A stretch of DNA of 64,000 nucleotides, from NCBI GenBank assembly GCA_015075075.1, contig JABTVA010000001.1, positions 51,662 through 115,661 on the forward strand, read 5' to 3'. How positions within the stretch are numbered: the stretch's first letter is position 1; each line of letters starts with the position of its first letter. The position numbers and the translations under genes were made by a program. Positions 12,358 through 63,207 of the stretch are shown here, in pieces. The notes under the pieces are model-generated. The model worked only from the letters and a program-made list of their open reading frames with translations, searched no databases and was not told the DNA's origin. The stretch is from Deltaproteobacteria bacterium (GTDB taxonomy: Bacteria; Desulfobacterota; GWC2-55-46).

Positions 12358-12423
12358 TATGTGAGCATTTTTATTAACGGCCTGACGCTGAGTCCGGGGA
12401 AAATATCAATTTTTAGCTTGCTG
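12283..12423 (+). mobile_element. Family B MITE copy, fused at its right end to family A copy A1
   Basis: GGCAACCTCTAAAAAT...core...TCAATTTTTAGCTTGCTGG. Overlaps the annotated nadC 5' end. Confidence 0.75.
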
Positions 12424-12578
12424 GAAAACTCCGTTTTTATTCAGGCTGCCTCAAAAGCTCCAGATGCGAGGCCCCCATTGGTATAAGGGAGCGAGGAATG
12501 AGGCGTACTTTTCGTGTACGCCGCAATGACGAGCGACGTAGCCTTCGACGCAGATGGACTTTTTCAGCAGCCTGTGTC
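12411..12578 (+). mobile_element. Family A MITE copy A1 (TIR CAGGCTGCTCAAAAAG.../...CTTTTTCAGCAGCCTG; internal hairpin GGCGTACTTTTCGTGTACGCC)
   Basis: One of 7 copies. 26-bp terminal inverted repeats. Confidence 0.8.
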
Positions 12579-20223: not shown

Positions 20224-20384
20224 TATCAGCTTACTGAAAAACTCATTCAGGCTGCTCAAAAAGCTCCAGATGCGAGGCCCCCATTGAAATAGGGGAGCGA
20301 GGCATGAGGCGTACTTTCCGTGTACGCCGCAGTAACGAGCGACGTAGCCTTCGACGCAGATGGACTTTTTCAGCAGCCTGCTAG
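20224..20384 (+). mobile_element. Family A MITE copy A3
   Basis: Consensus match. Abuts the 3' end of the ftsH remnant. Confidence 0.8.
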
Positions 20385-22439: not shown

Positions 22440-22555
22440 CGTTTCTTGCGGTCATTGCGAGGAGTGAAACGACGAAGCAATCTCAAAGTGCCTGATATTC
22501 AAAAGAAGAGATTGCTTCGCTGCGCTCGCAATGACGAATGCACGAATTAATCAAG
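22440..22555. repeat. Family D palindromic hairpin repeat (GTCATTGCGAGGAGTGAAACGACGAAGCAATCTC ... GAGATTGCTTCGCTGCGCTCGCAATGAC)
   Basis: Long inverted repeat seen in the sequence. Confidence 0.7.
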
Positions 22556-22582
22556 CTTCCTTAGCTATTTTTCCCGAGGTCT

Positions 22583-22680
22583 GCAGGGTGGAAGTAAAAA
22601 GCGAAGCATAGGAGCATATATGAAAATATGTGAGCATTTTTACGCAGAGTCCGGGGAAAAGATTCAATCTTTTAGCAGCT
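22583..22680 (+). mobile_element. Family B MITE copy (left end truncated), fused to family A copy A4
   Basis: Core AGCATATATGAAAATATGTGAGCATTTTTAC...GGGGAAAAGATTCAATCTTTTAGCAGC. Confidence 0.65.
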
Positions 22681-22840
22681 TGCTGAAAAACTCCGTTTTT
22701 ATTCAAACTGCTCAAAAAGCTCCATATGCGAGGCCCCCGTTGGAACAGGGGAACTGGGAATGAGGCGTACTTTTCTTGTACGCCGGAGTGTCAAGCGACG
22801 TAGCCTTCGACGGAGAACGACTTTTTCAGCAGCCTGTTAG
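22670..22840 (+). mobile_element. Family A MITE copy A4
   Basis: Consensus match. Ends at the stop of the downstream kinase gene. Confidence 0.8.
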
Positions 22841-25377: not shown

Positions 25378-28362
25378 TTAAATAGTAAAATAAAAAGTTG
25401 CGCCCTTCTCACTTTCTCCTTCGGCCCGGATGCTGCCCCCGTGGCGCTGTATTATCCTCTGGACCGTGGCCAGGCCTATGCCGGTGCCCGGGAACTCGTC
25501 CTCGCCGTGGAGCCTCTGGAAGGGGTTAAAAAGCCTTTCCGCATACTTCATCTCGAAGCCTGCGCCGTTGTCGCGCACGAAAAAGACGGTTTTCCCGTCC
25601 TCCTTCCCGGATGAGCCGAACTCGATCCTCGCAACGCCCTTTTTAGAGGTGAACTTCCAGGCGTTCCCCAGGAGGTTCTCCATCACGGTCTTAAGAAGCC
25701 CCGGGTCGCCGTCAGCGGCCAGGTTCTCATGTATGATGAATTCGGCATTCCTGTCGGGCTGGGCCTTCCTCAAATCCGAGGCGATGGCCCTCGCGACGCC
25801 GCTAAGGTATACCCTCTCTACGGTCATCTCCGCCCTCATCACTCGCGAGAGCTTCAAGAGCGCGTCTATGAGCTCGCCCATGCGCCTGCTCGCGGCCACG
25901 AGCCTTTCAAGGTACTCCTTTCCGGTCGTGCCGAGCGCGTCAGAGCAGTCCTTTACGAGTATCCTCGCGAACCCGTCTATGACCCTCAAGGGGGTCTTCA
26001 GATCGTGCGCCACGCTGTAGCTGAAGGCCTCAAGCTCGCGGTTGGCCGCTGCGAGCTCCGCGGTCCTTTCCTCCACCCTCTGCTCGAGCTCGGCATTCAG
26101 CTTCCTTACCTCATCCTCGGCCCTCTTCCTCTCGGTTATGTCCAGTACCGTGCCCGACATCCTGAGCGGTTTCCCTGCCGGGTCATGGACGACCTCTCCC
26201 TGCTCGTGCACTATCTTCTCCGTCCCGTCGCGGAGCACGACCCTGTGGTCTATCGAGTACGGCGCCTTCCCGTAAAGCGCCTCGTCGACCGCCTTAATCA
26301 CGTTCTCCCTGTCTTCGGGGTGTACATGGTTGAGGAAGGACTCGTATGTGGCCCCGAACTCGCGGGGCGTTACGCCGAATATCCTGTATATCTCGTCGGA
26401 CCAGTGAAGGTCGTTATTCACGATGTCCCAGTCCCAGTTCCCGAGCCTCGCTATCCTCTGCGCGTTGGCGAGCCTCGATTCGCTCTCGCTCAGGGCGTTC
26501 TCAGCGGCTTTCCTTTCGGTTACGTCCCTGTCAATGCCCCTGTAGCCCCGGAAGACCCCGTCCGGGTCGAAGACGGGGGAGGCGTTGGTCTCAAGCACCA
26601 CGGGAGAGCCGTCTTTTTTGAAATTCAGGTTCTCGTACGCATTGAAAGATTCTTTTCTTTCCACTGACCGCTCGATATCTCTTTTAACCTTCTCGGCCTC
26701 CTCGGGGGGCATGAGGTCAAAGGGCGTCCTTCCGATTATCTCATCGGGCTCGTATCCGAGTATGCTCCTCACCTTCGGGCTGGCATACGTGTATACGAGG
26801 TTCTCGTCCACCTCCCATACGAAATCGTTGATCGTCTCGACAAGGCCCCTGAACTTCTCCTCGCTCTCGGCCAGCGCCTCCTGCGACCTCCTTATCTGGG
26901 TTATGTCCGTGGATATGCCCGCCACCCCGTATATCTGGCCGTCAGCGGCCCTGAGCCTGAACTTGATGGAAATATACGAATGGAGCCCGTCATCATGCGG
27001 CGCGTACTCCTCGAACTCGACCGGCCTTTCGGATGCAAGGGCCTTAAGGTCGTTGGCCCGGAAGGCATCGGCCACCTCCCGCGGGAAAAAGTCGTAGTCT
27101 GTCTTTCCGCTTATCTCCCCGCCGCTGATATGAAAAAGCTCCTCGTATCTCCTGTTTATCAGCAAGTACCTGCCCTCGACGTCCTTTAGATAGACGACGT
27201 TGTTCGTATTATCCATAATGCCCCTGAACCTCTCCTCGCTCTCCATGAGGGCGCGGCTCCGTTCCTCAACGTCGGCAGCCATCCTGTTGAAATGGCCCGC
27301 AAGGATGCCTATCTCGTCCCCGCTCCTTACCGGCACGCGGGCGGCATAGTTCCCGGCGGCTATCTCCTTCGAGGCAGAGGCGATGGTCTTGAGCTGCCTG
27401 GCCATCCTGAAGAAATAGAGCGCGAAACCCGAGACGAGGACCAGCACCGTCACTCCGGTGAGCATTCCGTAATTGACGAGGCGACGCACCGGGGCGAAGG
27501 CCTCGCTTCTGTCCACCTCCGTAAGTAGGACCCAGCCGAAATCCTGCAGGCAAATGGACGTCCCTAATACTATTTCACCCCTGTAGTCTTCGTAAACGCC
27601 CATGTGGTCCCTTGTTTCTTCCAAACAGGCCCGCACCGCCTCGGTATCCACGGTGGTCCTGAAGGCGGTGTCCTCGATGAGCCACGAAGGGGTTATCATG
27701 AGCCTGTCCATGTTCACGAGGTATATGTCGAGCGTTTCGTAGCCCTCCAAAGCCCGGCGCGTAATGCCGATATCACGCCCCCTGCCCCTGGCCAGGATAT
27801 CTCCAATCCGCTCCTTTAGAACAAAGGCCGCGAGCACGCCTATGATATCCCCATTCTCCCTGCTCCGGAGCGGCACCGAGGCGACAAGATCGGGAACACC
27901 GGCAGGCCGGACCGTAATCGAAGGCCCCTCGCTCCCCTTCAGGAAAAATTCCTGGCCTGACCGGTCCTCCCCGATAACGGCCTGGTCCGTGGAGGAGACG
28001 ACCTTTCCGTCCATGCGCATTACCGAAAGCCCGTATGCGTCCTCAAGGACCGGGAGCTTATGCTCGACGAGATACGCGCTGAGGGCCGGGTCCTCGTCGA
28101 GCCCCTCCTTTACCGCCCTCTCGAGGCTGTCCCTTATCATCCCGTCGGTAGAGAAATCGACGACCCTCTGCTTGAGCGACTCCAGGAAAAAGAGGAGTTC
28201 CGAGGACCTGGCCTCAGCAATAGACCTCAAGTTCTCGTTCACAAGGGCGCCCGTATCCCTGCTGATGCTCTTGAGGCTAAAGAGGAACATGGCGGATACG
28301 GGAAGGAGGACTACAAGGAATGCCAGCACGACTTTGTATGCGAGGGGACAGGGCCTTTTCAT
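25378..28362 (-). CDS. Sensor histidine kinase: TM-periplasmic Cache-like domain-TM-HAMP-3xPAS-HisKA-HATPase
   Basis: Two TM segments flanking about 270 aa, H-box SYSVAHDLKTP, GTGIGLA G2 box. Confidence 0.85.
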   Translation of the reverse strand: MKRPCPLAYKVVLAFLVVLLPVSAMFLFSLKSISRDTGALVNENLRSIAEARSSELLFFLESLKQRVVDFSTDGMIRDSLERAVKEGLDEDPALSAYLVEHKLPVLEDAYGLSVMRMDGKVVSSTDQAVIGEDRSGQEFFLKGSEGPSITVRPAGVPDLVASVPLRSRENGDIIGVLAAFVLKERIGDILARGRGRDIGITRRALEGYETLDIYLVNMDRLMITPSWLIEDTAFRTTVDTEAVRACLEETRDHMGVYEDYRGEIVLGTSICLQDFGWVLLTEVDRSEAFAPVRRLVNYGMLTGVTVLVLVSGFALYFFRMARQLKTIASASKEIAAGNYAARVPVRSGDEIGILAGHFNRMAADVEERSRALMESEERFRGIMDNTNNVVYLKDVEGRYLLINRRYEELFHISGGEISGKTDYDFFPREVADAFRANDLKALASERPVEFEEYAPHDDGLHSYISIKFRLRAADGQIYGVAGISTDITQIRRSQEALAESEEKFRGLVETINDFVWEVDENLVYTYASPKVRSILGYEPDEIIGRTPFDLMPPEEAEKVKRDIERSVERKESFNAYENLNFKKDGSPVVLETNASPVFDPDGVFRGYRGIDRDVTERKAAENALSESESRLANAQRIARLGNWDWDIVNNDLHWSDEIYRIFGVTPREFGATYESFLNHVHPEDRENVIKAVDEALYGKAPYSIDHRVVLRDGTEKIVHEQGEVVHDPAGKPLRMSGTVLDITERKRAEDEVRKLNAELEQRVEERTAELAAANRELEAFSYSVAHDLKTPLRVIDGFARILVKDCSDALGTTGKEYLERLVAASRRMGELIDALLKLSRVMRAEMTVERVYLSGVARAIASDLRKAQPDRNAEFIIHENLAADGDPGLLKTVMENLLGNAWKFTSKKGVARIEFGSSGKEDGKTVFFVRDNGAGFEMKYAERLFNPFQRLHGEDEFPGTGIGLATVQRIIQRHGGSIRAEGESEKGATFYFTI

Positions 28363-29081: not shown

Positions 29082-29262
29082 AGGCCCTCCCGGCTTATGG
29101 ATTGTCCGCCCCGGCCAGGCAAGCCGCCTTGACCGGCCGCTTCCTAAGGGGGCGCATGGGGATTGAGAAGACTTTCAGGCGCTCGAAGGGACCGCTTCGC
29201 CTGAAACGGCGGGCTGTAGCGCCTCCGCCTTGAAAGGATTTTATATCAGGGCACAGGGTGTG

Positions 29263-29934
29263 TCAAACCCCTCTGTCCGTACGGACAGGCCGGAGGCGGT
29301 CAGGCGCTTCCGCGGCCTGGCGCTCGTTCCGGTTCCTGAGGGCGAACGTTATGAGCTGGGGCCTGTTCTGGATATCGAGCTTGTGGAATATGCGCTGGAG
29401 GTGCGTTTTGACAGTTGGCTCGCTTATGCAGAGCCTCAAGGCTATTTCCTTATTCCTGAACCCCTGGCCCACGAGGCTCACGACCTCCCATTCCCGTTCG
29501 GAGAGGGACGGCCTTGCCGCCTTCTTGAGGGCGTGGAGCCCGGTCAGTATGTTTTTCACCTCTATCTTGTCGAGCCATATCTCGCCGCAGGCGACGGCCC
29601 TTATGGCCTTCTTGAGGAGAAGCGGGGTCGAGCCGGCGGATAAGACCCCCTTGAGCCCCTTTGTGAGCACTGCCGAGACTATGTTCTCCTCGCCGCATCT
29701 GGTGTCGATGAGTATGAACCTGCCCGAGGCATGGCCGTCGTCTCCGAACCCGTTGAAAAGGGTGGTGAAATCAACCAGTACGCAGTCGGGCCTCAGCGAC
29801 TCTATGGCCTGCACGGGGCTCTCGCCGGGCTCGACCGTCCCGGCGACCTGTATATCCCCGGTCCCTTCAAGGAGCTTCCTTATGCCTTCAGAGAAGAGCC
29901 GGTTGCTGAAGGCGATGAGGACTTTTATCGTCAT
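29263..29934 (-). CDS. LuxR-family regulator with an atypical receiver (acidic DD pocket absent)
   Basis: C-terminal LuxR HTH (LSEREWEVV...FRNKEIALRLCISEPTVKTH). The N-terminal REC-like fold has AFSN where DD is expected. Confidence 0.7.
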   Translation of the reverse strand: MTIKVLIAFSNRLFSEGIRKLLEGTGDIQVAGTVEPGESPVQAIESLRPDCVLVDFTTLFNGFGDDGHASGRFILIDTRCGEENIVSAVLTKGLKGVLSAGSTPLLLKKAIRAVACGEIWLDKIEVKNILTGLHALKKAARPSLSEREWEVVSLVGQGFRNKEIALRLCISEPTVKTHLQRIFHKLDIQNRPQLITFALRNRNERQAAEAPDRLRPVRTDRGV

Positions 29935-30127
29935 ACCGCCTCCCTTTCATTTCATTTAAGGCTCGCGGCAAACCCACCCGATTGACCACACAAGCGAGCG
30001 CATTCCCCCGGGAGCTTTCTTCGTGGAACAAGCGAGCAAATATAAATCGAAAATCATGTGTCGAAGTTCCACGCGATGCCGCGGGGAACTTCAATGCCCT
30101 CTTTTTTTTTAAAGAGGCGGCCTAAAA

Positions 30128-30264
30128 GGGTGCTCTAAAAATTAGAAATTTTTTCTGAGGTCGAGGCAGAGGCGGAAATAAAAGCGGAGCATATATGTGA
30201 ATATGTGAGCATTTTATTCCGCCTCAACGAAGAGATCAGGAAAAGAGCAATTTTAGAGGCAGCC
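30128..30264 (+). mobile_element. Family B MITE copy
   Basis: GGTGCTCTAAAAAT...AGCATATATGTGAATATGTGAGC...ATTTTAGAGGCAGCC. Confidence 0.75.
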
Positions 30265-30268
30265 AAAA

Positions 30269-31375
30269 TCAGACCGAATCGAACGAGTCTATGTCCGACT
30301 GGCGTATTATCTTCTTGAGCTTGTCAAGTGCCTTTACTTCTATCTGGCGCACGCGCTCCCTGGTCACGCCGAACGACTTTCCTATCGCTTCGAGCGTCTG
30401 GGGCTCGTCCTCCTCGAGGCCAAACCTGAGCTTCAAGATCGTCCTTTCGTTCTCATCGAGCATCCCGAGCCAGGAGTTTATCCTGTCGACCCTCCGGGAA
30501 TCGTCGATGACCTCCATCGGGGTCGGGAACCTGTCGTCCTCCAGCCTGTCGAGGAGCGACTGGTCGGTGTCGTCCGGAAAGCTCGCCTCGAGAGAATAGC
30601 TCTTCTTGCTGATGGTGTTGAGCTTCTTGACGTACCTCCCGGAAAGCCCCGTCTTTTCCGAGAGCTCTACGAGGCTCGGCTCCCTTTTAAGCGCCCTCGT
30701 AAGCTCCCTGTTTGCCCGGGTGAGCTTGGATATGTCAGCGGTCACGTGTATAGGGAGCCTCACAATAGAAGACTGGTTGGCTATGGCGCGCTCTATGGCC
30801 TGCTTTATCCAGTAGGTCGCGTAGGTGGAGAACTTGCACCCCTTCGTGGCCTTGAACCGCTCGACGGATTTTATGAGGCCGATATTCCCTTCCTCTATGA
30901 GGTCCTGGAGCGGCAGCCCCCTGTTAAGGTACCTCTTCGCTATGTTGACCACGAGCCGGAGGTTCGCCTCTATCATCTTCCTCCTGGCCTGGGTATCGCC
31001 TTTCGCGATCTTCCTGGCGAGTGTTTTCTCCTCGTCGGATGTCAGGAGCGAGAACTTCTTTATGCCGCTGAAATATACCTTCACCGAATCGGTCGCGGTA
31101 GTTTCCTTTTCCCTGTCCTCTTTCCTGCCGCGCCTTTTCCCGGCAGGCTTGGAGGCCGCTTCGGGCCCGAGGGCCGACTCTTCCTTCATGTAGTCGCGGC
31201 CCGGGACGGCCTTTCCGGCCTCTTCCGCTTTATTCCTCCGGTAGGGGAGGGGCCACTTCTGCTGGGTCCGGGACACAGCCCCTTCCGAGAGTTTTTTCAT
31301 GGGCACGAACGGCTTTTCCTCTCCGTTTCCGCCGAAGCCCACGTATTTCCTGTTCTTGCCTTTGCCTTTGAACAT
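30269..31375 (-). CDS. Sigma-70 family sigma factor, RpoS/RpoD-like, with a basic N-terminal extension of about 110 aa
   Basis: Regions 1.2, 2 ([10 protein letters not shown]), 3 and 4.2 ([19 protein letters not shown]). ATG at 31373-31375 is preceded by AAGGAGGAG. The six-frame track extends the ORF to a TTG at 31402. Confidence 0.85.
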
Positions 31376-31398
31376 TTGCTCCTCCTTGGCGCTGATTT

Positions 31399-32196
31399 TC
31401 AAAGATGTTTTTGAGGAAGGCCCTCTCCCTGGCGGAACCCCTGGGCCTCTGGCCCCGCCCGCCTGGCCGCAGCGTTTACGAGTGAAGATACCGGCACAGG
31501 CTCATCCAGCCTGAGCCCCGATAAAACGGAGCCGTCCGCCTCTGTGGACCACGCCACGACCGCCTTTCTCCCGGTCTCGAACCCGCGGCCTATGCCGAGG
31601 CGAAGCCCGATAACGGCGCCTGCCTCAAGTAGGTCGCTGCCGGGGCATTCCACCTTCACGCCGTGCGTGGAAATGTCGACAGTCCGGGCCGCGAGCTCCG
31701 CGCCGCAGGCCGTGACATGACAGTCCAGGGATATCTCGATCCTCCCCTCGGCCCTCTTGCCTCCGCCGCGCCCCAGGATGCCCAGAAGCGACTTCTCCAT
31801 GAGCTTTTCAACCTTTTCGAGGAACTCTGATATCCGGAAAGGCTTGGGGAGGCAGGGGGGTCCGGCATCCGCGACGCGGCCAAACGCCAAATCGGGGTTG
31901 CCGGTCACGAAAAGGAACTTCTCCCGGAGCCCGGGGCTATTCTCCAGGGCGGCCCTGTAGAACTCCATGCCACCGAGCCCGGGCATGTTCATGTCGGAGA
32001 CGACCAGGTCGTAGCGGAAACCAGAATCCCGGAGCCTCTCAAGGCCCTCGAGCCCGTGCCTTGCGGTGTCCACCTGGTAGCCGGCGACGCGCAGCACCTC
32101 CGAGCAGAGGTCCCGTATGTTCTCGTCGTCGTCGACGACAAGTATCTTCCTCGAGTCGAGCATGCCTGTATCCACGAGCTGAGTTTTCCCGCTCAC
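31399..32196 (-). CDS. Response regulator with a C-terminal PilZ domain (REC-PilZ, putative c-di-GMP-binding)
   Basis: Canonical REC ([19 protein letters not shown]), PilZ RxxxR (KRAEGR) and DxSxxG (DISTHG). Stop is about 23 nt upstream of the sigma start codon. Confidence 0.8.
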
Positions 32197-32553
32197 CCGG
32201 GAGCGCCGGGGTCCGTTATGAAACCTGCAAATCCTGAAGCGTGCTGTCTGGGAGGTCCGGCCTTCAGAGGTATCCTAAGGGAATCCTGAAAGGGCACTCA
32301 CATATGCGCTTGGCCGCTTATCTCAGTGAAGGGGATGTTTTGCAGAAAGCATGCCAAAAGACGGACGCCGGATTTTGCCAATGACATGAGGCGACGAAGA
32401 CTTCCAGCGTACGTGATGGGATGCGACGGTTGTTCAAAGGTTTTGTATCCGATAAAGCGGAATGGCCTGTCAAGGCAAGGGTTTCGTGCAGGTGCAAAAA
32501 AAATCGCAGGAGCAAAAATTGTCTCAGGGGTGCGTGCGGCTATTTCGCTATAG

Positions 32554-32694
32554 GGTGCCTCTAAAAATTCGGAATTTTTTCAGAGGTCAAGGAAGGGCGG
32601 AAATAAAAAGCGCAGCATATATGGGAATATGTGAGCATTTTTATTTCCGCCCTGACACAGAGATCAGGAAAAAATAACTATTTTAGAGGTGGCC
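32554..32694 (+). mobile_element. Family B MITE copy
   Basis: GGGTGCCTCTAAAAAT...core...ATTTTAGAGGTGGCC. Confidence 0.75.
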
Positions 32695-32796
32695 TATAAC
32701 GATTGGGAGGAATGAGATGGATTTACGTCATGCCGGAATGACATGGACTCGGGGATGGGCGGAATGCTTAAAAGATCCCCTGGACTGTCTGATTAA

Positions 32797-33165
32797 TTCG
32801 CAAACGCTGTCATTCTGAGCGAAGCGAAGAATCTCTGGGCCCAGCATAACTATTCAGATAGGTCATGCCACCCAGGATTCATGGATTCGATCAATTCGAT
32901 TTTTCTGGCTCTCATCCACCCTTTTATCTGCTTTTCACGTTCCAGCGCAGAAAGAATATTCTGTTGTCATTGCGAGGAGCCTTGGCTCCGAAGCAATCTC
33001 CAAGTGCTTGATTTTCCAAAAGACAAGATTGCTTCCCGCCACGCTTCGCTCGCGGCTTCGGCTCACACGCTCGCAATGACGAACACATTGAATTAATCAG
33101 AGCTTCCTTAACTCCTGAAAACAGATTCTTCGCTTCGCTCAGAATGACAAGATTTAATTCTTACC
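32797..33165. repeat. Nested family D hairpin elements: an outer element (32797-32835 and 33115-33165) interrupted by an inner complete element (32955-33095)
   Basis: Half-site GTCATTCTGAGCGAAGCGAAGAATCTC at 32803; its partner GATTCTTCGCTTCGCTCAGAATGAC at 33120. Complete GTCATTGCGAGG...CTCGCAATGAC between them. Confidence 0.6.
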
Positions 33166-33194
33166 AAGGGAAGATCTGATTAAATCCCAATGTC

Positions 33195-34610
33195 CTAATG
33201 CTTGCGAGGGTCCTTTCTCTTGAGCCGCTTATTGAGCGCCTGGCGGGTAATCCCAAGGAGGTTCGCGGCTATGCCCTGGTTCCCGTGGGAAAGCTCAAGG
33301 GCCCTGGCTATGAGGACGTCTTCCGATTCCTTCAGGGTGGGGAAGTTCTCGGCGGATACGGGCGGCCCCGGCTTAAGCTCCTTTTGGGGGGCTGCCGCCG
33401 TCCTCTCCCGGCCTATTATGTCCCTGAAGTCTTTCCATTGAAAGCACGCCGCCCTTGTGCCTGGCGTAACCGCGTCGTAGACCATTGCCTTGGAGCCCCG
33501 GACGTTGCCCGGGAAATGATAGGTGGACATGAGGGTGGCGAGCTCGGGCGGCGGGTAGGCTTCTTCTTTTTCATGGCGTCCGCAGCCCTCTGCCAGGAAT
33601 GGTTATGAGCACCGGGATGTCCTCCTGGCGCTCGCGGAGCGGCGGATGTGGACCTGGTGGGCCGGAGCCTGTAGTAGGGTCCTTCCTGAAGCCGCCTTCG
33701 GCAATGAGCCTCAGGAAGTCGTGGTTCGTGGCGACGACTATCCGGACGTCGCCTTCTTGGGGACGTCCGATCCCAGCGGGTAGTATTTCTGTTCCTGCAG
33801 GAGCCGCAGGAGCTTCACCTGGGAGGACTCGTTCGTGTCCCCTATCTCGTCAAGGAAGAGGGTCCCGCCGGCGGCATGGGCTATGAGCCCCTCCCTCGCC
33901 TCGTCCGCCCCGGTATACGCGCCCTTCTTGTGGCCGAAGAGCGTGTCCGAGAACATGGTGTCGTCAAGCCCGGCCACGTTCACGGCAACGAACTCCCCTT
34001 TCCTGCCGCTTATGTCGTGGACCGCCCTTGCGAAGAGCTCCTTACCGACCCCGGTCTCGCCGGTTATGAGGACCGGCTGCTGTGTGGCGGCTATGACCTC
34101 GACGTACTGGAAGATGGCCCGCATCTTCTTGTTTACGGTGATTATGGAGGAGAAGGCTTCCTCGTTCTCGAGGTCGCCCATCAAGAGGCTCCGCTTGAGG
34201 GAAAGGACCTCAATCCGGAGCGAATGGAAATCGAGCGCCCTCCTTACGCTCGCCTCGAACCTGCTCCGCTCCACGGGCTTCACGAGGTAATCGAACGCCC
34301 CGGACTTCATGCATTCAACCGCGGTCTCGATGTCGTTTACGGCCGTGAGTATTATGACCGGGACCATCGGGTGGCTGTTTGCTATCTCATGGAGGAGCCG
34401 GGTCCCGGAGACGTGGGGCATGGAAAGGTCGAGGACGATGGCCGCGACCTCCTGCTTCTCGAGGAGCGGCATCACCTGCCTGCTGTCGTCGACCGTAAGG
34501 ACCTGCTTTATCCCGGCGCTACGGAGCAAGACGCTGTAGCTCTTAAGTATCTGGGCCTCGTCGTCGACAAGGAGGACCGGCAGGGGCATTTTACCGGTTT
34601 TTACCGACAT
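33195..34610 (-). pseudogene. Sigma-54-dependent (NtrC-family) response regulator, frameshifted between the AAA+ and HTH domains
   Basis: REC + AAA+ (GETGVGKE, GAYTGA) in 33738..34610. Fis-type HTH in 33195..33530. Frame is broken near 33540-33740. Confidence 0.7.
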
Positions 34611-38086: not shown

Positions 38087-40972
38087 TCAGTTCACCAGTT
38101 TCGAGACGACGCTGCTGAGCTCGTCTATCGTGAAAGGCTTCTTGATGGAAGGCGCGCCCACCTTGGAAAGGAAGGCCTGCGTCTCGGGGTTTATGCTGTC
38201 TCCCGATATGAATATCATCTTCTTCAGGGCCTCCGGCCTCAGGACCTGCACCTCGTTGTAGAACCCCTTGCCGCCGAGCCCCGGCATCTTGATGTCGCTT
38301 ATTATGAGGTCGTAGTCCGAGCCGGACACCTTGATGATGGCGTCCTCGGCGGACGAGCACCTGTCCACCACGAAGCCGAAGCCGGTGAGCGAGTCCATGA
38401 GGAGGTCCAGCACTATGGGCTCGTCGTCAACGACGAGGGCCTTCTTGCCGTCCACCCTTAACTTCTCGGATGCTTCCGTGCCGCCGTAAAAGAGGCCTTC
38501 GGAGTCGTCGCCCACGACCGGCAGCTCCACTATGAAGGTGGTCCCGCTCCTTCTCCGGCTGGACGCGTATATGTTGCCGCCGTGCTCGTGCACTATGCCG
38601 TACGAGATGGAGAGGCCGAGCCCGGTCCCCTTCCCCACCTCCTTTGTGGTAAAGAACGGGTCGAATATCCTGTTCGCTATCTCTTCGGATATGCCCTTGC
38701 CGGAATCCTCGACGCTTACGACTATCTTCCCGTTGCTGTGCCTGCTCGTTATCCTGATGGTGCCGCCGGAGCCGCCCTCCTTTATCGCGTCGCTCGCGTT
38801 GTTTATGAGGTTCAGGAACACCTGCTGTATCTGGTTGGCGTCCAGCATGGTCCCGGGTATCGAGTCGTCAAGGTCGAGGTCGACTTTTATGTTGTCGATC
38901 CTCAGCTGGTATGCCCTGAAATCCAGGCTGTCCCTTATTATGCGGTTTACGTCGCCGTACTTCTTCTCGGGCCTCTTCCACCTGGCGAAGGTGAGAAGGT
39001 TCTCGATTATCTTCTTGCAGCGGTGCGAGGCCTCGTTTATCTTCCGTATCTTGGAGCTTGCGCTCTCGCCGAGCTTGTCCTCGAGGAGGAGCTCGGAGAA
39101 GCACATTATCCCGGTAAGCGGGTTATTGAGCTCGTGCGCGACCCCGGAGACCAGCTCCCCGAGAGACGAAAGCTTGTCCGACTGGAGGAGCTTCTGCGTA
39201 AGGAGCCGTTTTTCCGTAACGTCGTGGACGTAGACGACGGCGCTCCCGGGCTTTTCCCCGTCCAGCACCGGATAGGACTGCCAGACGAAGACCTTGCCGT
39301 CCGGCGTCGTGAACTCCATCTCGGCGGTGGACGAGTGCTCTATCGACTTCCTTACCGGGCAGTTCCTGGCCGGCGGCTCAAGCCCGAACGCGGCGTATAC
39401 GTTCCTGCCGACGGCTGCCCGCTCCGTGAGGCCCGTCATCTCGAGGAAAGACCTGTTCGCCTCGACTATCTTGTAATCGCTCCCGACGAGCAGTATGAAG
39501 TCCCTTATGCCGTCGTAGATGAGCCGGAGCTTGTTCTTGGCCTTCTTGAGCTCCTCCTCTTCCTTGAGTATTATCCTGTTAGCCTTCTGGAGCTCGGTAT
39601 TTTTCCTGTCCAGGTCCTCGTTAAGGAGCTTCAGCTCCTCGTTTATGGCATGGAGCTCCTCGGTCTGGCTCTGTGTTTCCTCGTACGCAATCTCGAGCTC
39701 CTCGTTGGATATCCGGAGCTCTTCGTTCAGGTGGGCAAGCGCGGTGTTCTTCGCCTCTATCTCGGCAAGGTACCTGGCCTTCTCGGCTTCCCTTCCGCCC
39801 GCCTCGTCCGCCATCCTGTTGAATACCTTGGCGAGCACGGCTATCTCGTCCACGGCCTCGGCGTCCTCGACCACTATCCTCACCCCCAGGTCGCCCCTGC
39901 CGTACGCAAGGAGCTTCTCCTTTACCTCCTTGAGGGGCCTCGTTATCCTGTTGGTAGAGACGAAGGCGGCAATGAGCGCGAAGCCGAAGCCTATGAGGGT
40001 TATTACGGCTATGACCAGCTGGTTTTCCCTCTGGATGGACCACAGCCTCTCCTTGGAGATGCCGACGTGCAGGGAGCCGACTATATTGCCCCTCGAGTCC
40101 CTGATCGGCTCGGACATCGATATCAGCGAAAGCCCCCCGACGGTCATCTCGCCGAGGAAAGGCTTGCCGGCCGCAAGCTCCGCATAGGCCGTCCCGTTTA
40201 CGCGCGTGCCGCGCATGTTCCTCCCGTTCTCGTCGGCTATGTTGGTCGATACGCGCACACCCATGGCGGATATGGTGGTGAAGAACCCTGGGAGCTTCCG
40301 GGACACCATGTCGGGTACGAAGCTGTCGTTATTAAGAACATCCCCTGTGATTATGGTTCCGGTTACCGCGCCCCGTCCGTCCAGCACCGGCGTGACCACC
40401 ATAAGCGCCAGCACGCCCGGGGAGTCGCCGGCGGGCGCTTCCGCGTCCGGCGACGCGTTCAGGGCAAGCTCCGGCCCCTCGAGCCTCAAGGCCGCCTTGT
40501 CGAGTAGCTCGGTGGAGGTCCGGGCCTCCCTGCCCTCCACGGCCTGCCTGGTAAGCCCGCCGAGGGGGTAGAGGTCGCCGGTGGACGCGCTGTTGAGCCT
40601 TGCAATGATTCTGCCGTCCGCGTCGGTCACGGCCCAGATGTCCACATAGGGCCTCGACTTCTTCCAGGAGACCATGCTGTCCCTGAGATACCTGGCGTTC
40701 CCGGTGGCGACCGCGTCCTGTATCTCGCGCATTGCCGCGGCCTGGAGCATGCCGTAGCGCATCTGCTCGCCGCGGACGTAATACTCGGTCCACGCCGCCT
40801 TTATGCCCGTGGAGACCTGCTCGACCGCGTGCTCCATGAGCCTCGTGTCAATCACCCTGTAGGAGATATAGGCAAGGAGGAACATCGGGACAAGGACGAC
40901 GGAGAGGAAGACGACCGTGAACTTGAAACCCATAGGCCGTCCGTAGAAGTACTTGAGCGGTCTCATCGGCAT
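38087..40972 (-). CDS. Hybrid sensor histidine kinase: TM-double Cache-TM-HAMP-NEEL coiled coil-PAS-HisKA-HATPase-REC
   Basis: Periplasmic region of about 280 aa, repeated NEEL heptads (NEELRISNEELEIAYEETQSQTEELHAINEELKLLNEDL), H-box HELNNP, C-terminal REC (DLIISDIKMP). Confidence 0.85.
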   Translation of the reverse strand: MPMRPLKYFYGRPMGFKFTVVFLSVVLVPMFLLAYISYRVIDTRLMEHAVEQVSTGIKAAWTEYYVRGEQMRYGMLQAAAMREIQDAVATGNARYLRDSMVSWKKSRPYVDIWAVTDADGRIIARLNSASTGDLYPLGGLTRQAVEGREARTSTELLDKAALRLEGPELALNASPDAEAPAGDSPGVLALMVVTPVLDGRGAVTGTIITGDVLNNDSFVPDMVSRKLPGFFTTISAMGVRVSTNIADENGRNMRGTRVNGTAYAELAAGKPFLGEMTVGGLSLISMSEPIRDSRGNIVGSLHVGISKERLWSIQRENQLVIAVITLIGFGFALIAAFVSTNRITRPLKEVKEKLLAYGRGDLGVRIVVEDAEAVDEIAVLAKVFNRMADEAGGREAEKARYLAEIEAKNTALAHLNEELRISNEELEIAYEETQSQTEELHAINEELKLLNEDLDRKNTELQKANRIILKEEEELKKAKNKLRLIYDGIRDFILLVGSDYKIVEANRSFLEMTGLTERAAVGRNVYAAFGLEPPARNCPVRKSIEHSSTAEMEFTTPDGKVFVWQSYPVLDGEKPGSAVVYVHDVTEKRLLTQKLLQSDKLSSLGELVSGVAHELNNPLTGIMCFSELLLEDKLGESASSKIRKINEASHRCKKIIENLLTFARWKRPEKKYGDVNRIIRDSLDFRAYQLRIDNIKVDLDLDDSIPGTMLDANQIQQVFLNLINNASDAIKEGGSGGTIRITSRHSNGKIVVSVEDSGKGISEEIANRIFDPFFTTKEVGKGTGLGLSISYGIVHEHGGNIYASSRRRSGTTFIVELPVVGDDSEGLFYGGTEASEKLRVDGKKALVVDDEPIVLDLLMDSLTGFGFVVDRCSSAEDAIIKVSGSDYDLIISDIKMPGLGGKGFYNEVQVLRPEALKKMIFISGDSINPETQAFLSKVGAPSIKKPFTIDELSSVVSKLVN

Positions 40973-41793
40973 TTCCTGTAGATGTTGAGGCCGCGCCCGA
41001 GCAGCTCGTACCTTGCGGAATACATGTGCGGCAGCACCTCCGCCTTTCCCATGACCAGTATGCCGCCGGGGCGGAGCGCGTAATCGAGCTTCGCGAAGAC
41101 CTTCTCCTGGAGGGGCTTGTTGAAGTATATGAAAAGGTTCCTGCAGAAAAGTATGCTCACCCCCCGTATGGAAGGGCTCTGGACTATGTCGAGGGTGCCG
41201 AACCGCACCAGGCCCCTCAAGTCCATGCTCACCCGGTAGAAGCCGTCCGCCGGCACGAAGTACTTCTCCCGGAGCGCCGGCGAGACGTTCGCTATCGCTT
41301 CCTCCCTGTATACGGCCCTCCTGGCCTGGTCAAGCGCGTCGCAATCGATGTCGGTCGCGAATATCCGCGAGCCTGCAAGCGCCTCGGGGCTCATGGCCTC
41401 GGCAAAGAGCGCGCCGAGAGAATAGGCCTCCTCGCCGTATGCGCACCCGCAGCACCAGGATTTCAACGGCGTATTGCGGAACTCGCGCCTGACGATGCCT
41501 TCCAGGACGGAGAAGACCTCCGGTTCCCTGAAAAACTCGCTTACCTTTATCGTGAGCGTGGAGAAGAGCCTGTGGTACTCGTAGGGGTCTTTTCCGAGGA
41601 TATGGAGGTAGTCTTCGCAGGAGCGCGCCCTGGCGGAGTGGAGGAGTTTCGAGACCCTGCGCGAAAGCGTTGACCTCTTGTAATTTCTGAAATCCCAGCC
41701 CCGTTCCTCATAGACCTTCTCCAAAAGAGAGGAAAGTCCGTCTGAGGAACCGCTCTGGCCGTGCCTATGGAGGGTCCCGTGGACAATATTCAT
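40963..41793 (-). CDS. cheR: CheR-type protein-glutamate O-methyltransferase
   Basis: SAM-binding CGCAYGEEAYS and CRNLFIYF motifs. The stop overlaps the kinase start (ATGCCGATGA). The alternative upstream start at 41862 lies inside the family C repeat. Confidence 0.8.
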   Translation of the reverse strand: MNIVHGTLHRHGQSGSSDGLSSLLEKVYEERGWDFRNYKRSTLSRRVSKLLHSARARSCEDYLHILGKDPYEYHRLFSTLTIKVSEFFREPEVFSVLEGIVRREFRNTPLKSWCCGCAYGEEAYSLGALFAEAMSPEALAGSRIFATDIDCDALDQARRAVYREEAIANVSPALREKYFVPADGFYRVSMDLRGLVRFGTLDIVQSPSIRGVSILFCRNLFIYFNKPLQEKVFAKLDYALRPGGILVMGKAEVLPHMYSARYELLGRGLNIYRKCR

Positions 41794-41826
41794 AGTTGTA
41801 TACCAGGAAGAGTAAAGGCCAAAGAT

Positions 41827-41990
41827 AGCAGGGTATTGAAAAAACCCTGCCAAGCAATCCACGGATGGATTGCAAATTGCGAAGACTATCCCAAGTCGAG
41901 CAATTTGTAATGCCTGGACGGATTCATTCCGGCCAAGCCGTGGTTGGAAAAGCCCAAAAGGACTTTTTCAATAACCTGATAGGAGGGAGA
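41827..41990 (+). mobile_element. Family C MITE-like repeat, copy 2
   Basis: About 85% identical to 1369-1530. Confidence 0.7.
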
Positions 41991-44645: not shown

Positions 44646-45149
44646 ATGACCAAGAGGCTCCTCCTGCTTTCAGCGCTTGCAGCCGTTCTCATCTCGGGCT
44701 GCGCGCCGGTCATCTCAAAGGAAACGCTCGGGACCGTCAACCGCGGGCTCGGGTTCGGCGAGGTCGCATCCAGGCCCGCCGACTACGTAGGCGCGTCGGT
44801 GGTCTTCGGAGGGACCATCCTCGAGACCCGTAACGAAGAGGGCCGGACTGTCGTCGAGGTCCTTCAGGAAGGCCTTGATTCGAGGCTCAGGCCCTCAGAG
44901 CGGGGCGAATCCGAAGGGCGGTTCCTTGTCGAGTTCGAGGGGTTCAGGGACCCGGCCATATACTCGAGGGGCAAGAGGATAACCGTCGCGGGCGAGGTCA
45001 TCGGCACCGAGAGGCTCAGTATCGGCAGGGGCACATACGACTATCCGGTAATACAGCCCAGGGAGCATACGCTCCTCGACCCCCCTTCATACGACCCGGG
45101 GCCGCGCATCGGCATAGGCATAGGTCTCGGCTACACCCGCGTGAGGTGA
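44646..45149 (+). CDS. Slp-family outer-membrane lipoprotein
   Basis: Lipobox LISGC, Slp-like length and hydrophilic body. Confidence 0.6.
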   Translation: MTKRLLLLSALAAVLISGCAPVISKETLGTVNRGLGFGEVASRPADYVGASVVFGGTILETRNEEGRTVVEVLQEGLDSRLRPSERGESEGRFLVEFEGFRDPAIYSRGKRITVAGEVIGTERLSIGRGTYDYPVIQPREHTLLDPPSYDPGPRIGIGIGLGYTRVR

Positions 45150-47785
45150 CCGGCCTCCCCGCCGACAGTCCTCAGGAATGCCTTGACCACCTCCGGGTCG
45201 AACTGCGTGCCCGAGCACCTCTTGAGCTCCCGCAGGATGTTCTCCAGGGGCAGGCCCTTCCTGTAGGGCCTGTCGGCGCTCATGGCATCCACCGTGTCCG
45301 CCACGGCCAGTATGCGCGCCATGAGCGGTATCTCGCCGCCCTTGAAGCCCCCGGGATAACCCGACCCGTCGTATGACTCGTGATGGTGCATTATGGCAGG
45401 AACTATCCTCTTCATCTGCCTTATGGGCGAGAGTATGTCCGCGCCCTTCTGCGGGTGCCTCCTTATGACGGCTATCTCCTCGTCGGTGAGCCTGCCGGGC
45501 TTATCCAGTATGGACTCGTAGGTCCCGAGCTTACCTATGTCGTGGAGGAGCCCCGCGAGCTCCATGTCCTTGAGATCCTCCGCCGAGAAGGACATCTCGC
45601 GCGCTATTTCCATCGCGTATTTCGTGACCCTGTCCGAGTGCCCCTTGGTCCAGGAGCTCTTGGCGTCGATCGCCTCGGAAAGGGTCTTCACTATGCCGAG
45701 GAAGAGCTCGCTCAAGTCGCTTACGAGCCGCGCGTTCTCGAGGGCCACGCCTATCTGTGAGGCGAGCTTCTCCATGACCGATAAGTCGTCGGAGGTAAAG
45801 GCGGCCTTCCTCCTGGCCCCGACCGTAAGCACCCCGACCACCTCTCCCTTTATCGCGAGCGGGACCCTGAGGTGCGAAAGGAAACCGTCCTTGAATAAGG
45901 CCTCCTCGAGGCGCTGCCTGACGGATTCGTTTATATCAGGCACGAACTGCGGCCTGCCGGTACTCAGTATGTCGGTCGTAGTCGTGTCAGAAAACGGGAT
46001 GAGGCTGCCTTTCTCAAGGGATATTCCGAAGCCCGCCTCGTATACGAACCCGCCCTTCTCCCTGTCGACGAGGGCCACGGTGGCCCGGTCGCAGGAGATT
46101 ATCTTCGAGACCATCCGGGCGGCTATCTCCAGTATCTCGTTGGGCTCGAGGGTGGAGAGGATGGACTTGTCTATCTCGTGCATTATGCTTATGGTCTCGA
46201 CCTTCCTCGAAAGGTCGAGCGCCCTGTCTATCGAGTCCTGGTAGAGCTTGGCCTCGTCCAGCGCGGTCGAGACCTGGTAGGATATGCCGCCGAGCACCTC
46301 CTTGTCCCTCCTTGTAAGCCCTCCGCTGTACTTGCCAGGCGGGCAGGTATAGAGGCAAAGGAGGACCCCCAGCCATTCGCTTTTGCGGACAAGGGGCAGG
46401 ATTATCGCGGCCTCGGCGCCCCCCGACCATTCGAGCGCCTCTTTTCCCCCGCCGCCGCCCTCGAAGACCTCGATACCCGGGCCGGACTCCATCGCTTTCA
46501 TGATGAACGGCAGGTCGGGCTTAAGCGGGTTTACCCTGAAGAGGGAGGCCAGGTCGGCCGGGAGCCCCTTCTGGGCCGAGGGCTCCAGGACGCCTTTTTC
46601 CCTGTCCCAGAGGTACGAAATGCAGCAGTCCGCCTCCATTATGGAAAGAAGGCTCTCGACCACGTGCCCCATGAGCTTGTCTATGTCCGTCGTGTGCTCG
46701 GTGGCAAAGGCTATGGCGAGGAGGTGCCTCGTTATCTCCATCTCCTCTTTCATCCTCTGCGAGGTCTCCTTAAGCTCGCTGAAGAGCTTCGCGTTCCTGA
46801 TGCAGAGGGCCGCGTGGTTCGCAAGGGTCTGGAGGAACGGGACCTCGTTCTGGGGGAACTCTTCTTTCGCGGAGCATATGGTGAGAACGGCAATGGGCTT
46901 CCCGGCCTCGGTTATCGGAAAAGAGGCCGCGGACCCCGGCCCGGCTTCCGTACCGTCCGGGACGGCCTTCCACGGGGCCGGGACCCGGTTTTGGACCTCC
47001 GGGACCCCGCTCCTTACGGCCCTCGACGAGAGATCCCCGGCGCACTGCAAATGACCGGAAGGGTCCAGTGCGGCCTCGGTCACCGAAGGTGAGCGCCCAT
47101 CGTCGGCCGTTGCTAACGTCCGCGGCAGTATCTCTCCGGTATCGGGGTCGAGGAGCCCCACCCATGCCATCCTGAAGCCGAAGCTGACGGCCGTGCCGCA
47201 TATCCTCTTGAGCCTGAACTCGAGATCTAAGCTCCCCATTACGTCCTGCGAGAGCTCGTATACGAGCCTTTCCCTCTCGGTCCTCCTCTTCTCCTCCGTT
47301 ATGTCCCGGAATATCTGGATGGCGGTGGGCTCCTCCTTTTCAAGCACGTAAAAGCTCACGTTGTAGACCCTGTCGGGGCCCGCAATCCTTATCTCCTCCG
47401 TGCAGGCGTGCGGCTCCCCCTTTCCGAGCATGTGCCTGCACGCCTCGAAGGGCCCGTCCATCTTCGGGAAGACCTCGTAATACCTCCTCCCGATTATCGA
47501 GCTGAAAGGCATGCCTGCGGCGTCCTGGTAGGCCCTGTTGCATTTCAAGACCCTCATGTCGGAATCGTGGATGAGTATGGGGTCGAGTATGCTGTCGAAG
47601 GTCGCTTCCCATTCCCTCTTGGACTTCATGATGCCCTCGGCAATGGCGGTGTTGTCCTCGAGGAGCGAGAGCATCGCACGGCGCGTGCTCATGAACTCCT
47701 TTTCGCGCTCCATTGCCCTTTCAAGCTCTTTCCTGAGCTTTCCCAGTTCCGCGGAGGCGCGGTCGTTTGAGGCGGGTTTATGCAA
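45131..47785 (-). CDS. PAS-GAF-GAF-GAF-HD-GYP c-di-GMP phosphodiesterase
   Basis: C-terminal HD (LLHDIGK) and HHHESYDGSGYP motifs, 884 aa, intact. Confidence 0.85.
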   Translation of the reverse strand: MHKPASNDRASAELGKLRKELERAMEREKEFMSTRRAMLSLLEDNTAIAEGIMKSKREWEATFDSILDPILIHDSDMRVLKCNRAYQDAAGMPFSSIIGRRYYEVFPKMDGPFEACRHMLGKGEPHACTEEIRIAGPDRVYNVSFYVLEKEEPTAIQIFRDITEEKRRTERERLVYELSQDVMGSLDLEFRLKRICGTAVSFGFRMAWVGLLDPDTGEILPRTLATADDGRSPSVTEAALDPSGHLQCAGDLSSRAVRSGVPEVQNRVPAPWKAVPDGTEAGPGSAASFPITEAGKPIAVLTICSAKEEFPQNEVPFLQTLANHAALCIRNAKLFSELKETSQRMKEEMEITRHLLAIAFATEHTTDIDKLMGHVVESLLSIMEADCCISYLWDREKGVLEPSAQKGLPADLASLFRVNPLKPDLPFIMKAMESGPGIEVFEGGGGGKEALEWSGGAEAAIILPLVRKSEWLGVLLCLYTCPPGKYSGGLTRRDKEVLGGISYQVSTALDEAKLYQDSIDRALDLSRKVETISIMHEIDKSILSTLEPNEILEIAARMVSKIISCDRATVALVDREKGGFVYEAGFGISLEKGSLIPFSDTTTTDILSTGRPQFVPDINESVRQRLEEALFKDGFLSHLRVPLAIKGEVVGVLTVGARRKAAFTSDDLSVMEKLASQIGVALENARLVSDLSELFLGIVKTLSEAIDAKSSWTKGHSDRVTKYAMEIAREMSFSAEDLKDMELAGLLHDIGKLGTYESILDKPGRLTDEEIAVIRRHPQKGADILSPIRQMKRIVPAIMHHHESYDGSGYPGGFKGGEIPLMARILAVADTVDAMSADRPYRKGLPLENILRELKRCSGTQFDPEVVKAFLRTVGGEAGHLTRV

Positions 47786-50580: not shown

Positions 50581-50634
50581 CGGGGCACCTCTTTAGGAAG
50601 TGGTTTACGGCATGGCAGCCGGAACGTTATAAAG

Positions 50635-62078: not shown

Positions 62079-62408
62079 TCAGTGCCGCGCCTTCCTCATG
62101 TGGTAGTGCTTTGTGAGCCCCTCGTCCACGCGCGAGAATTCGACTCCCATCCCGCATTTGGTGATGTGCACCATGCCATGCGGGACCTTCTTTGCCCAGG
62201 CCACCACGCCCTCGGCCATGTAGTCAACATCGTCTATTGTAATCTTGAGATATAGCTTCGTCCCAACGCCGAAAACCTGGTGGGCCTTTATGCAGATGCC
62301 TGTCTCCGACAGGTCGGTGATGAATGCGAACTGCTCCGGCGGATTGGTCAACCCGTAACGGACGCTTGCGCGCATTTTTAACCTGGGGCTTTTTCTTTTG
62401 TCGACCAT
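62079..62408 (-). CDS. Single-domain PilZ protein
   Basis: RKSPR (RxxxR) and DLSETG (DxSxxG) motifs. Confidence 0.7.
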   Translation of the reverse strand: MVDKRKSPRLKMRASVRYGLTNPPEQFAFITDLSETGICIKAHQVFGVGTKLYLKITIDDVDYMAEGVVAWAKKVPHGMVHITKCGMGVEFSRVDEGLTKHYHMRKARH

Positions 62409-62841: not shown

Positions 62842-63207
62842 CTACTGCCTGTTCAGCCAATCCTCTATCGCGTCCTTGCTCGCCTCGTCGAGGTCCAGGA
62901 ATTTTATGCCCATGCCCGGCTCCTGCTTGACGAGCGAATCGTACTCCCTCGACCAGGCGACCACGCACCTGCATTTTATGTCGAGGTCCCCGAGCTTGAA
63001 GGATATCTCGAACTCCTCGCCAGCCTTTTTCGGGTTTACGGAGGCTATGAACATGCCTCCCCTGCCGACGGTCTTGGCGTATCCGAAGAAGACCCCGGCC
63101 TTGTCCTCGCCCCTTACCTTGAGGACAAGGAGCTGCTTACGGAGGTTCTTTCTCCTGTCGGACCTCAGAAGTACGTAATCGTCTTCCTGGTTCTTACCAT
63201 TTCCCAT
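62842..63207 (-). CDS. PilZ-domain protein (second paralog, degenerate DxSxxG)
   Basis: RRKNLR motif. 14-nt overlap with the upstream nitroreductase gene. Confidence 0.6.
   Translation of the reverse strand: MGNGKNQEDDYVLLRSDRRKNLRKQLLVLKVRGEDKAGVFFGYAKTVGRGGMFIASVNPKKAGEEFEISFKLGDLDIKCRCVVAWSREYDSLVKQEPGMGIKFLDLDEASKDAIEDWLNRQ

Follow-up and report, generated by a model that had tools for sequence, protein, structure and literature searches.

The stretch of DNA analysed here (the window: 64,000 nucleotides (nt) of contig JABTVA010000001.1, assembly GCA_015075075.1, from a Deltaproteobacteria bacterium) carries on its reverse strand a response regulator gene whose product joins a receiver (REC) domain to a PilZ domain, followed directly by the gene of an RpoS-like sigma factor with an N-terminal extension. 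An earlier reading of the same DNA, the original prediction, had singled out this pair and proposed that the first protein, here called REC-PilZ, places the second under both phosphorylation and cyclic di-GMP (c-di-GMP), by analogy with the enterobacterial adaptor RssB. The arrangement is real, conserved, so far undescribed and built from known parts. The features of the locus, in the direction of transcription, are the following (ORF, open reading frame; aa, amino acids; pLDDT, predicted local distance difference test).

33195..34610 (-), NtrC-type enhancer-binding protein (REC, AAA+ sigma-54 activator, Fis-type helix-turn-helix), recognised by Pfam on two ORF fragments
32493..32526 (-), upstream activator-type direct repeat TGAGACAATTTTTGC-TCC-TGCGATTTTTTTTGC, ~140-170 nt upstream of the promoter
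32422..32434 (-), further conserved block AACAACCGTCGCA common to 13 lineages, ~70 nt ahead of the promoter
32341..32356 (-), sigma-54 (-24/-12) promoter TGGCATGCTTTCTGCA, a unique match in the window, conserved upstream of REC-PilZ
32164..32340 (-), leader from promoter to REC-PilZ start codon, ~135-165 nt, conserved among close relatives
31399..32196 (-), REC-PilZ response regulator gene, 265 aa with GTG 32196 as start (Pfam, motifs, AlphaFold2 model)
31376..31398 (-), intercistronic spacer of 23 nt with the Shine-Dalgarno sequence AAGGAGGAG, seen in the DNA itself
31091..31375 (-), part of the sigma factor gene coding for the N-terminal extension, residues 1-95 (orthologue alignment, pLDDT, composition)
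30269..31375 (-), group-2 sigma factor of 368 aa with an extended N-terminus, a paralogue of RpoS (Pfam regions, NCBIfam, PDB, clade)
29263..29934 (-), atypical NarL/LuxR-family regulator (VpsT/CsgD-like), third gene of the cassette (GerE helix-turn-helix in Pfam, PDB)

REC-PilZ and the extended sigma factor

For REC-PilZ, ATG 32163 is a more likely start than the GTG listed above and gives a protein of 254 aa, the length of most homologues. Pfam places Response_reg at residues 18-129 (56.2 bits against a curated gathering threshold of 30.2) and PilZ (PF07238) at residues 147-230 (32.9 bits against 22.5). The receiver pocket is complete (DD, the phospho-acceptor D, T and K), and the PilZ ligand motifs are present as RAEGR at residue 148 (RxxxR) and DISTHG at residue 174 ([D/N]xSxxG), bearing out the canonical receiver and intact PilZ motifs that had been described. 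The 16 members of the family alignment are 14 proteins from sigma-linked loci and those of L008 and L009. RxxxR and [D/N]xSxxG are kept in 16 of 16, and also in L031, a locus from a metagenome scan, which favours a functional PilZ domain as far as motifs can tell. The receiver DD, phospho-acceptor D and K are likewise kept in the aligned proteins and L031, the sole exception being a D-to-S change in the acidic pair of L009, which has no neighbouring sigma gene; the T position is T or S across the aligned members, and conserved receiver segments among the orthologues read VVDDDE, SDMNMP, FVTG and PKPF. Judged from the alignment, purifying selection is shown to act on both the c-di-GMP and the phosphorylation motifs, and REC-PilZ would be expected to bind c-di-GMP.

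In the AlphaFold2 model (pLDDT 74.5) a flexible linker, on which RxxxR lies, joins the standard receiver to a beta-barrel with a C-terminal helix behind it. A Foldseek comparison of this model with the PDB returned nearly exclusively receiver domains, one distant PilZ-containing match (the cellulose synthase BcsA) and no two-domain analogue, so that nothing was learned about the target. Since the protein contains neither a DNA-binding nor an enzymatic domain, its output must be the binding of a partner. Identities as RssB, CpdR or CckA were rejected, because the corresponding NCBIfam matches cover the receiver only and lie far under the cutoffs; the RssB model PRK10693, for example, scores 35 bits against a cutoff of 329 and aligns with residues 13-82 only. 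The C-terminal domain is a PilZ domain and no PP2C-like domain is present, which places REC-PilZ outside the RssB/SprE family. Nor does the fold, an alpha/beta receiver plus a beta-barrel, correspond to that of RsiG, although no search aimed at the RsiG motifs was made.

The sigma factor contains regions 1.2, 2, 3 and 4 but not region 1.1 (Pfam) and no large non-conserved insert, as is typical of group-2 sigma-70 proteins. The NCBIfam models of RpoS score highest, both below their equivalog cutoffs (PRK05657, 315.9 against 394; TIGR02394, 311 against 378.7); the RpoD model follows with 288 bits, and the top PDB structures are those of Pseudomonas and Escherichia coli RpoS. The group-1/2 assignment given originally is thereby confirmed and narrowed to group 2, with RpoS as the closest relative. 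Searches with this protein recover two length classes, one of 350-395 aa that aligns with the full query and one of ~305 aa that aligns from region 1.2 onward, and both can occur within one genome (P0121 and P0220 on a single 1.55-Mb contig; L012 and L022 in assembly JACOUO01). In relatives, the ~305-aa copy occupies the order surE-pcm-(LysM/M23 peptidase, nlpD-like)-rpoS (L022, 4083-7873; L023, 4210-7840) and never has a REC-PilZ, activator or LuxR-type gene nearby. Relatives thus carry two sigma factors of the RpoS type, the short one, in its classical context, in addition to the extended one. When the core region is placed in a neighbour-joining tree, the extended proteins form one very tight clade nested among the short copies; on this basis the sigma factor of the window is a duplicated, strongly constrained, lineage-specific RpoS paralogue rather than the RpoS orthologue. 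Its core is 94% identical where REC-PilZ of the same genome is only 74% identical, REC-PilZ evolving much faster. In E. coli RpoS, K173 is both an RssB contact and a determinant for the -13 C; the residue aligned to it is Ala or Ser (HVTAD, HITAD, HITSD) in both paralogues.

Region 1.2 begins at residue 96, and the 95 aa that precede it match no family. The extension had been described as Lys/Arg-rich and about 110 aa long; its basic character holds (24 K+R against 13 D+E, isoelectric point 10.1), its length does not. It is longer by ~40 aa than the corresponding part of E. coli RpoS and by ~65-70 aa than that of the short paralogue of relatives, and is restricted to the REC-PilZ-linked paralogue. 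Within this otherwise variable basic tail stand the short conserved motifs KK[FY]xGFG, FVPxKK and WPLP[YF]R. In an alignment of 35 sequences P42 and P44 are invariant and W41 is near-invariant, and WPLPYR is retained in L031, the lineage of 39% identity. AlphaFold2 gives pLDDT values below 50 over residues 1-102 and no secondary structure before residue 97. The tail thus behaves like a predicted disordered region with linear motifs and not like a region-1.1-type domain, as would be expected of a stretch used for docking or as a degron.

The cassette and its promoter in other lineages

The REC-PilZ stop codon (31399-31401) and the sigma ATG (31375) are separated by the spacer listed above, so that the ~23-nt spacing and the strong ribosome-binding site noted at the outset both hold, the latter being of the GGAGG type. 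Neither a terminator nor a sigma-70-type promoter was found on the coding strand of this gap, and the two genes are probably co-transcribed. Related loci were collected from the neighbourhoods of REC-PilZ homologues, from a search of GTDB species representatives with the sigma factor as query and from one metagenome-scan locus; in that scan, made with the REC-PilZ alignment, generic receiver matches swamped the results and L031 was the sole true relative. REC-PilZ lies directly upstream of the extended sigma factor in at least 16 lineages, with REC-PilZ identities of 37-89%. The closest homologue (89%) comes from a complete 2.75-Mb Thermodesulfobacteriota metagenome-assembled genome (MAG), CP129479.1, and the others range down to ~37%. 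Gaps between the two genes measure 19-231 nt across the linked loci, and a GGAGG-type site stands just before the sigma ATG in all 15 loci whose start could be located. Conversely, every extended-sigma locus with enough upstream DNA has an adjoining REC-PilZ gene, that of L010 being merely interrupted by masked Ns. Because the adjacency recurs in so many lineages it is not due to chance, and the pair stays together down to 37% identity of REC-PilZ, a persistence in relatives on which the original prediction had staked itself. All linked lineages are annotated as uncultured 'Deltaproteobacteria'/Thermodesulfobacteriota MAGs or metagenome contigs, and the layout is, from these comparisons, conserved across a group of uncultured sulfate-reducer relatives.

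Conservation extends beyond the pair. The shared gene order is NtrC-type enhancer-binding protein, sigma-54 promoter, REC-PilZ, extended sigma factor and LuxR/GerE-type regulator, usually followed by genes for a pyrophosphatase, a dCache-HAMP-PAS histidine kinase and a REC-GAF-PAS kinase, and often preceded by a CheR gene and a hybrid kinase. The original prediction missed the main regulatory feature of the locus, the conserved sigma-54 promoter with its adjacent NtrC-type activator. TGGCATGCTTTCTGCA, ~145 nt upstream of the REC-PilZ GTG, is the sole match to TGGCAY-N5-YTGCW in the 64-kb window, where 0.12 would be expected, and in all 16 sigma-linked loci that could be assessed TGGCAY-N5-NTGCA lies between the genes of the activator and REC-PilZ. 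The element has GG at -24, GC at -12, the canonical spacing, upstream repeats 70-170 nt away and an adjacent AAA+ activator. The direct repeat TGAGACAATTTTTGC-TCC-TGCGATTTTTTTTGC is near-invariant in 13 lineages, whereas the DNA flanking it is not conserved. Taken together, promoter and upstream blocks present what would be the expected layout of an activator-dependent sigma-54 promoter. Compared with the intact orthologue of L001 (472 aa), the activator of the window shows 82% identity, and an intact activator gene lies directly upstream of REC-PilZ in every sigma-linked locus with enough flank.

The leader is almost identical among relatives whose proteins share only 74% identity. A search of Rfam over 29900-33800 at a permissive threshold found no riboswitch or known RNA in it, and RNAalifold on the leaders of 13 lineages yielded a weak 5-bp CCTTY/GAAGG stem alone (total energy -1.25 kcal/mol), a consensus fold so weak that no structured leader is claimed.

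Neighbouring regulator, kinases and repeats

The third gene of the cassette lies downstream of the sigma factor in all loci with flank. In some lineages the gap falls to 32-36 nt, which makes membership of the same operon probable there. Against the PDB, its product matches NarL over the full length and VpsT over residues 95-201 only. The DD acidic pocket of its receiver is replaced by (A/L)xSN, although an Asp is kept at the acceptor position. At the place of the VpsT c-di-GMP motif W[F/L/M][T/S]R, which opens the last helix of the receiver, all orthologues have GE[IV]WLD[KR] in a tentative alignment with VpsT. A near-consensus sigma-70 promoter (TTGACA-17-TAAAAT, 11 of 12 positions) was observed at 29238-29266 (-), at the 3' end of this gene and ahead of that of the pyrophosphatase, which is therefore probably transcribed apart from the regulatory operon. 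Further signalling genes of the window are listed below.

38087..41862 (-), CheR methyltransferase and hybrid Cache-HAMP-PAS histidine kinase, candidate input to the activator (Pfam, synteny)
25378..28362 (-), dCache-HAMP-PAS-HisKA-HATPase histidine kinase, candidate kinase of REC-PilZ (Pfam, neighbourhood conservation)
45131..47785, PAS-GAF-GAF-HD-GYP protein (HD_5 domain, HHHESYDGSGYP)
62079..62408 and 62842..63207, stand-alone PilZ ORFs

The best pointer to a kinase comes from L008 (23-4084), a locus without the sigma gene, in which REC-PilZ is directly followed by an orthologue of the dCache kinase (43% identity over 1002 aa); this adjacency suggests that the dCache kinase may be the cognate partner of REC-PilZ. 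Synteny of the CheR/hybrid-kinase pair upstream of the activator is found in L001, L002, L005, L013-L015 and L021. Between this pair and the activator, three ORFs (34693-37947 (-); 536, 375 and 165 aa) encode similar multi-pass membrane proteins without a Pfam match. The 375- and 165-aa ORFs resemble the two parts of one further, split copy; at this place CP129479.1 carries just one gene, of 537 aa, and L002 none. The HD-GYP phosphodiesterase and the two further PilZ proteins mentioned in the original prediction were recovered as ORFs with domain matches. The PilZ protein encoded at 62842-63207 (-) has RxxxR but lacks [D/N]xSxxG, and may therefore not bind c-di-GMP.

Two kinds of repeat were noticed around the operon. 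A dispersed intergenic repeat of ~150 nt occurs in five copies of one orientation (12270-12440, 22540-22710, 30122-30264, 32548-32694 and 50622-50792), two of which flank the REC-PilZ/sigma operon. It has terminal and internal inverted repeats and the invariant core GCATATATG-N4-ATATGTGAGCATTTT, the copy at 32540-32705 folds as one long hairpin (-67 kcal/mol, z = -8.6), and the whole looks like an element of the miniature inverted-repeat transposable element (MITE) or repetitive extragenic palindromic (REP) type. The idea that the flanking hairpins are the ends of a mobile cassette was discarded, given that relatives have the same synteny and that the repeat is dispersed over five intergenic regions. 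Separately, the DNA that separates the upstream activator sites from the activator gene contains an inverted repeat with perfect arms of 27 nt, TGTCATTCTGAGCGAAGCGAAGAATCT. Its arms (32808-32834 and 33123-33149) enclose 288 nt, and a third arm lies at 3972-3998. Probably another small insertion element, it helps to explain why the intergenic region measures ~1 kb, as against 550-700 nt in relatives.

Candidate targets of REC-PilZ and known systems

The following mechanism is proposed. The NtrC-type activator, probably fed by the neighbouring CheR/hybrid-kinase pair, would bind the conserved upstream repeats and switch on the -24/-12 promoter, leading to co-transcription of REC-PilZ and the duplicated RpoS-type sigma factor, with the atypical NarL/VpsT-like regulator on the same transcript at least in some lineages; the outcome would be a cascade from sigma-54 to a sigma-S paralogue. 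REC-PilZ would act by binding protein, as a switch on which c-di-GMP and phosphorylation (probably by the dCache kinase) converge. Its likeliest target would be the sigma factor made from the same mRNA, contacted via the disordered basic tail with WPLP[YF]R, and the effect might be sequestration, release or hand-over to a protease, such that the new sigma factor would be active only when second messenger and phosphorylation are both in the right state. Such gating agrees with the synteny and the conserved motifs; the contact between the two proteins and the identities of the kinases are inferred. That REC-PilZ directly gates the co-expressed sigma factor is given a probability of roughly 40%; second-messenger control of a sigma factor is, on comparative grounds, plausible but unproven. 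Rather unlikely is the more specific proposal that REC-PilZ is the first PilZ-type sigma regulator, a dual-input anti-sigma factor or adaptor docking on WPLP[YF]R, and that the tail evolved after the rpoS duplication for control by a second messenger.

Several observations weigh against direct gating. Dedicated protein partners are uncommon for group-2 sigma factors. The lineage of L006 has the REC-PilZ/sigma pair with a tail that lacks WPLP[YF]R. Set against the intact CP129479.1 orthologue, the activator gene of the window is disrupted, with three in-frame stops and several frameshifts that compensate one another. Error-prone assembly is as likely a cause of this as real decay, because FtsH-like ORFs elsewhere in the window (20381-22281 (-)) are likewise split, into about four pieces. 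The REC-PilZ family is also wider than the sigma-linked group. A word-indexed homologue search had suggested only ~12 proteins, an impression of a narrow family that was overturned by an exhaustive profile search, which returned proteins of 230-260 aa that match the REC-PilZ profile over its whole length and fall into at least 56 clusters at 50% identity. Contexts sampled across this family include the full cassette in L116 and L117, and also five lineages without an adjacent sigma gene (L008, L009/L111, L113, L114 and L115), which implies that the fold has sigma-independent targets. L115 retains the sigma-54 promoter and the LuxR-type gene in the absence of sigma: its locus (3631-5547) consists of REC-PilZ with its own sigma-54 promoter, a 64-aa ORF and the LuxR-type orthologue, and represents either loss of the sigma gene or an ancestral REC-PilZ/LuxR pair. 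In L113 and L115 the promoter stands ~95 nt ahead of the REC-PilZ gene. It is thus REC-PilZ itself that sigma-54 control and the dCache kinase accompany, and the sigma and LuxR-type partners are found only in a large sub-clade.

These sigma-less lineages, whose motifs are intact, lend weight to the leading alternative, namely that the two genes are only co-regulated: REC-PilZ would act on an unlinked target (motility, polysaccharide synthesis or a kinase) and share a sigma-54 promoter with the sigma paralogue because both serve one lifestyle programme, and the tail of the sigma factor would have an unrelated role. The promoter in sigma-less L113 and L115 implies that sigma-54 control belongs to REC-PilZ itself, and PixA, a characterised PilZ-receiver fusion, controls motility polarity in Myxococcus and not a sigma factor (PMC8316039). 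However, the order REC-PilZ then sigma holds in at least 16 lineages despite divergence to 37%, and the tail was gained only in the linked paralogue, both of which are more than co-regulation usually preserves. Co-regulation alone is a real possibility, somewhat less probable than direct gating.

Another candidate partner is the NarL/VpsT-like regulator, on the view that the ancestral unit was REC-PilZ plus a LuxR-type gene, between which an rpoS duplicate was inserted in one clade. The constant position of the LuxR-type gene after sigma agrees with this, as does L115, whose LuxR-type protein (50% identity) shares the ALSN, VLVDF and GEVWLDK features; moreover, a receiver without an acidic pocket may depend on a partner, protein or ligand, rather than on phosphorylation. 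Yet L115 is a single lineage in which the 420 nt between the genes could be a deletion scar, and sigma-less L008, L113, L114 and L111 are also without a LuxR-type neighbour, which leaves this partnership improbable. Still less probable is a strict RssB-type mechanism, a sub-case of direct gating in which phosphorylated REC-PilZ is a proteolytic adaptor that delivers sigma to ClpXP: the canonical receiver and a disordered tail that could act as a degron would suit it, and in E. coli ClpX recognises sigma-S close to the N-terminus once RssB is bound, but the likeness to RssB is confined to the receiver, the PP2C-like domain is absent, the K173 equivalent is Ala or Ser, no ClpX-binding feature is identifiable and PilZ domains are not known as protease adaptors. 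Of the RssB analogy in the original prediction the likeness of the receivers stands; the PRK10693 score, the status of the sigma factor as paralogue and not orthologue, the K173 position and the REC-PilZ genes without a sigma neighbour all speak against the rest. It should better be dropped in favour of a sigma-54 to sigma-S-paralogue framing.

Precedents for control of this kind are RssB-RpoS, the c-di-GMP-dependent anti-sigma factor RsiG and, in Borrelia, the Rrp2-RpoN-RpoS cascade with PlzA. Among known systems, the enterobacterial RssB (SprE)-RpoS pair shares with direct gating by REC-PilZ the idea that a receiver protein without a DNA-binding output controls an RpoS-type sigma factor post-translationally; RssB differs in carrying a PP2C-like C-terminal domain instead of PilZ, in not being co-operonic with rpoS in E. 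coli and in binding around K173. In Streptomyces RsiG-sigma(WhiG), c-di-GMP decides whether the partner sequesters the sigma factor. RsiG is helical and holds c-di-GMP at the interface with a group-3 sigma factor; no PilZ domain, receiver or sigma-54 control is known there, and c-di-GMP-dependent control of a sigma factor is what the systems would share. VpsT and CsgD resemble the product of the downstream LuxR-type gene in combining a receiver-like domain with a degenerate phosphorylation pocket and a GerE helix-turn-helix, and csgD is RpoS-dependent in E. coli. PixA of Myxococcus xanthus has one PilZ and one receiver domain, shows c-di-GMP binding in vitro and depends genetically on its phospho-acceptor Asp (PMC8316039). 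Its domain order is reversed relative to REC-PilZ (PilZ then REC), its gene is an orphan next to which no sigma gene lies, and what the protein controls is cell polarity and motility. Closest by logic is the Rrp2-RpoN-RpoS cascade of Borrelia burgdorferi, in which the PilZ receptor PlzA modulates RpoS function (PMC11109971, PMC9974103). There too an NtrC-type activator acts on a sigma-54 promoter to produce an RpoS-type sigma factor whose output is modulated by a PilZ receptor. However, PlzA is an unlinked dual-PilZ protein that has no receiver and is thought to act through BosR, and the organisms are unrelated, whereas in the window PilZ is fused to a receiver, its gene lies directly upstream of sigma in the same operon, and the sigma factor is an extra paralogue with a novel tail.

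In the literature searched, no receiver-PilZ protein whose gene shares an operon with that of a sigma factor is described, although the components (sigma-54 activators, RpoS-type sigmas, PilZ receptors and VpsT/CsgD-like regulators) are all familiar. If REC-PilZ does act on the sigma factor, c-di-GMP would reach RNA polymerase via a PilZ domain, a route not yet shown, and one could study in a compact, biochemically tractable pair of proteins how a duplicated general-stress sigma factor comes under a control of its own. Even without such a link, the locus would be a clean non-spirochaete cascade from sigma-54 to sigma-S, with a promoter and upstream sites that are directly testable.

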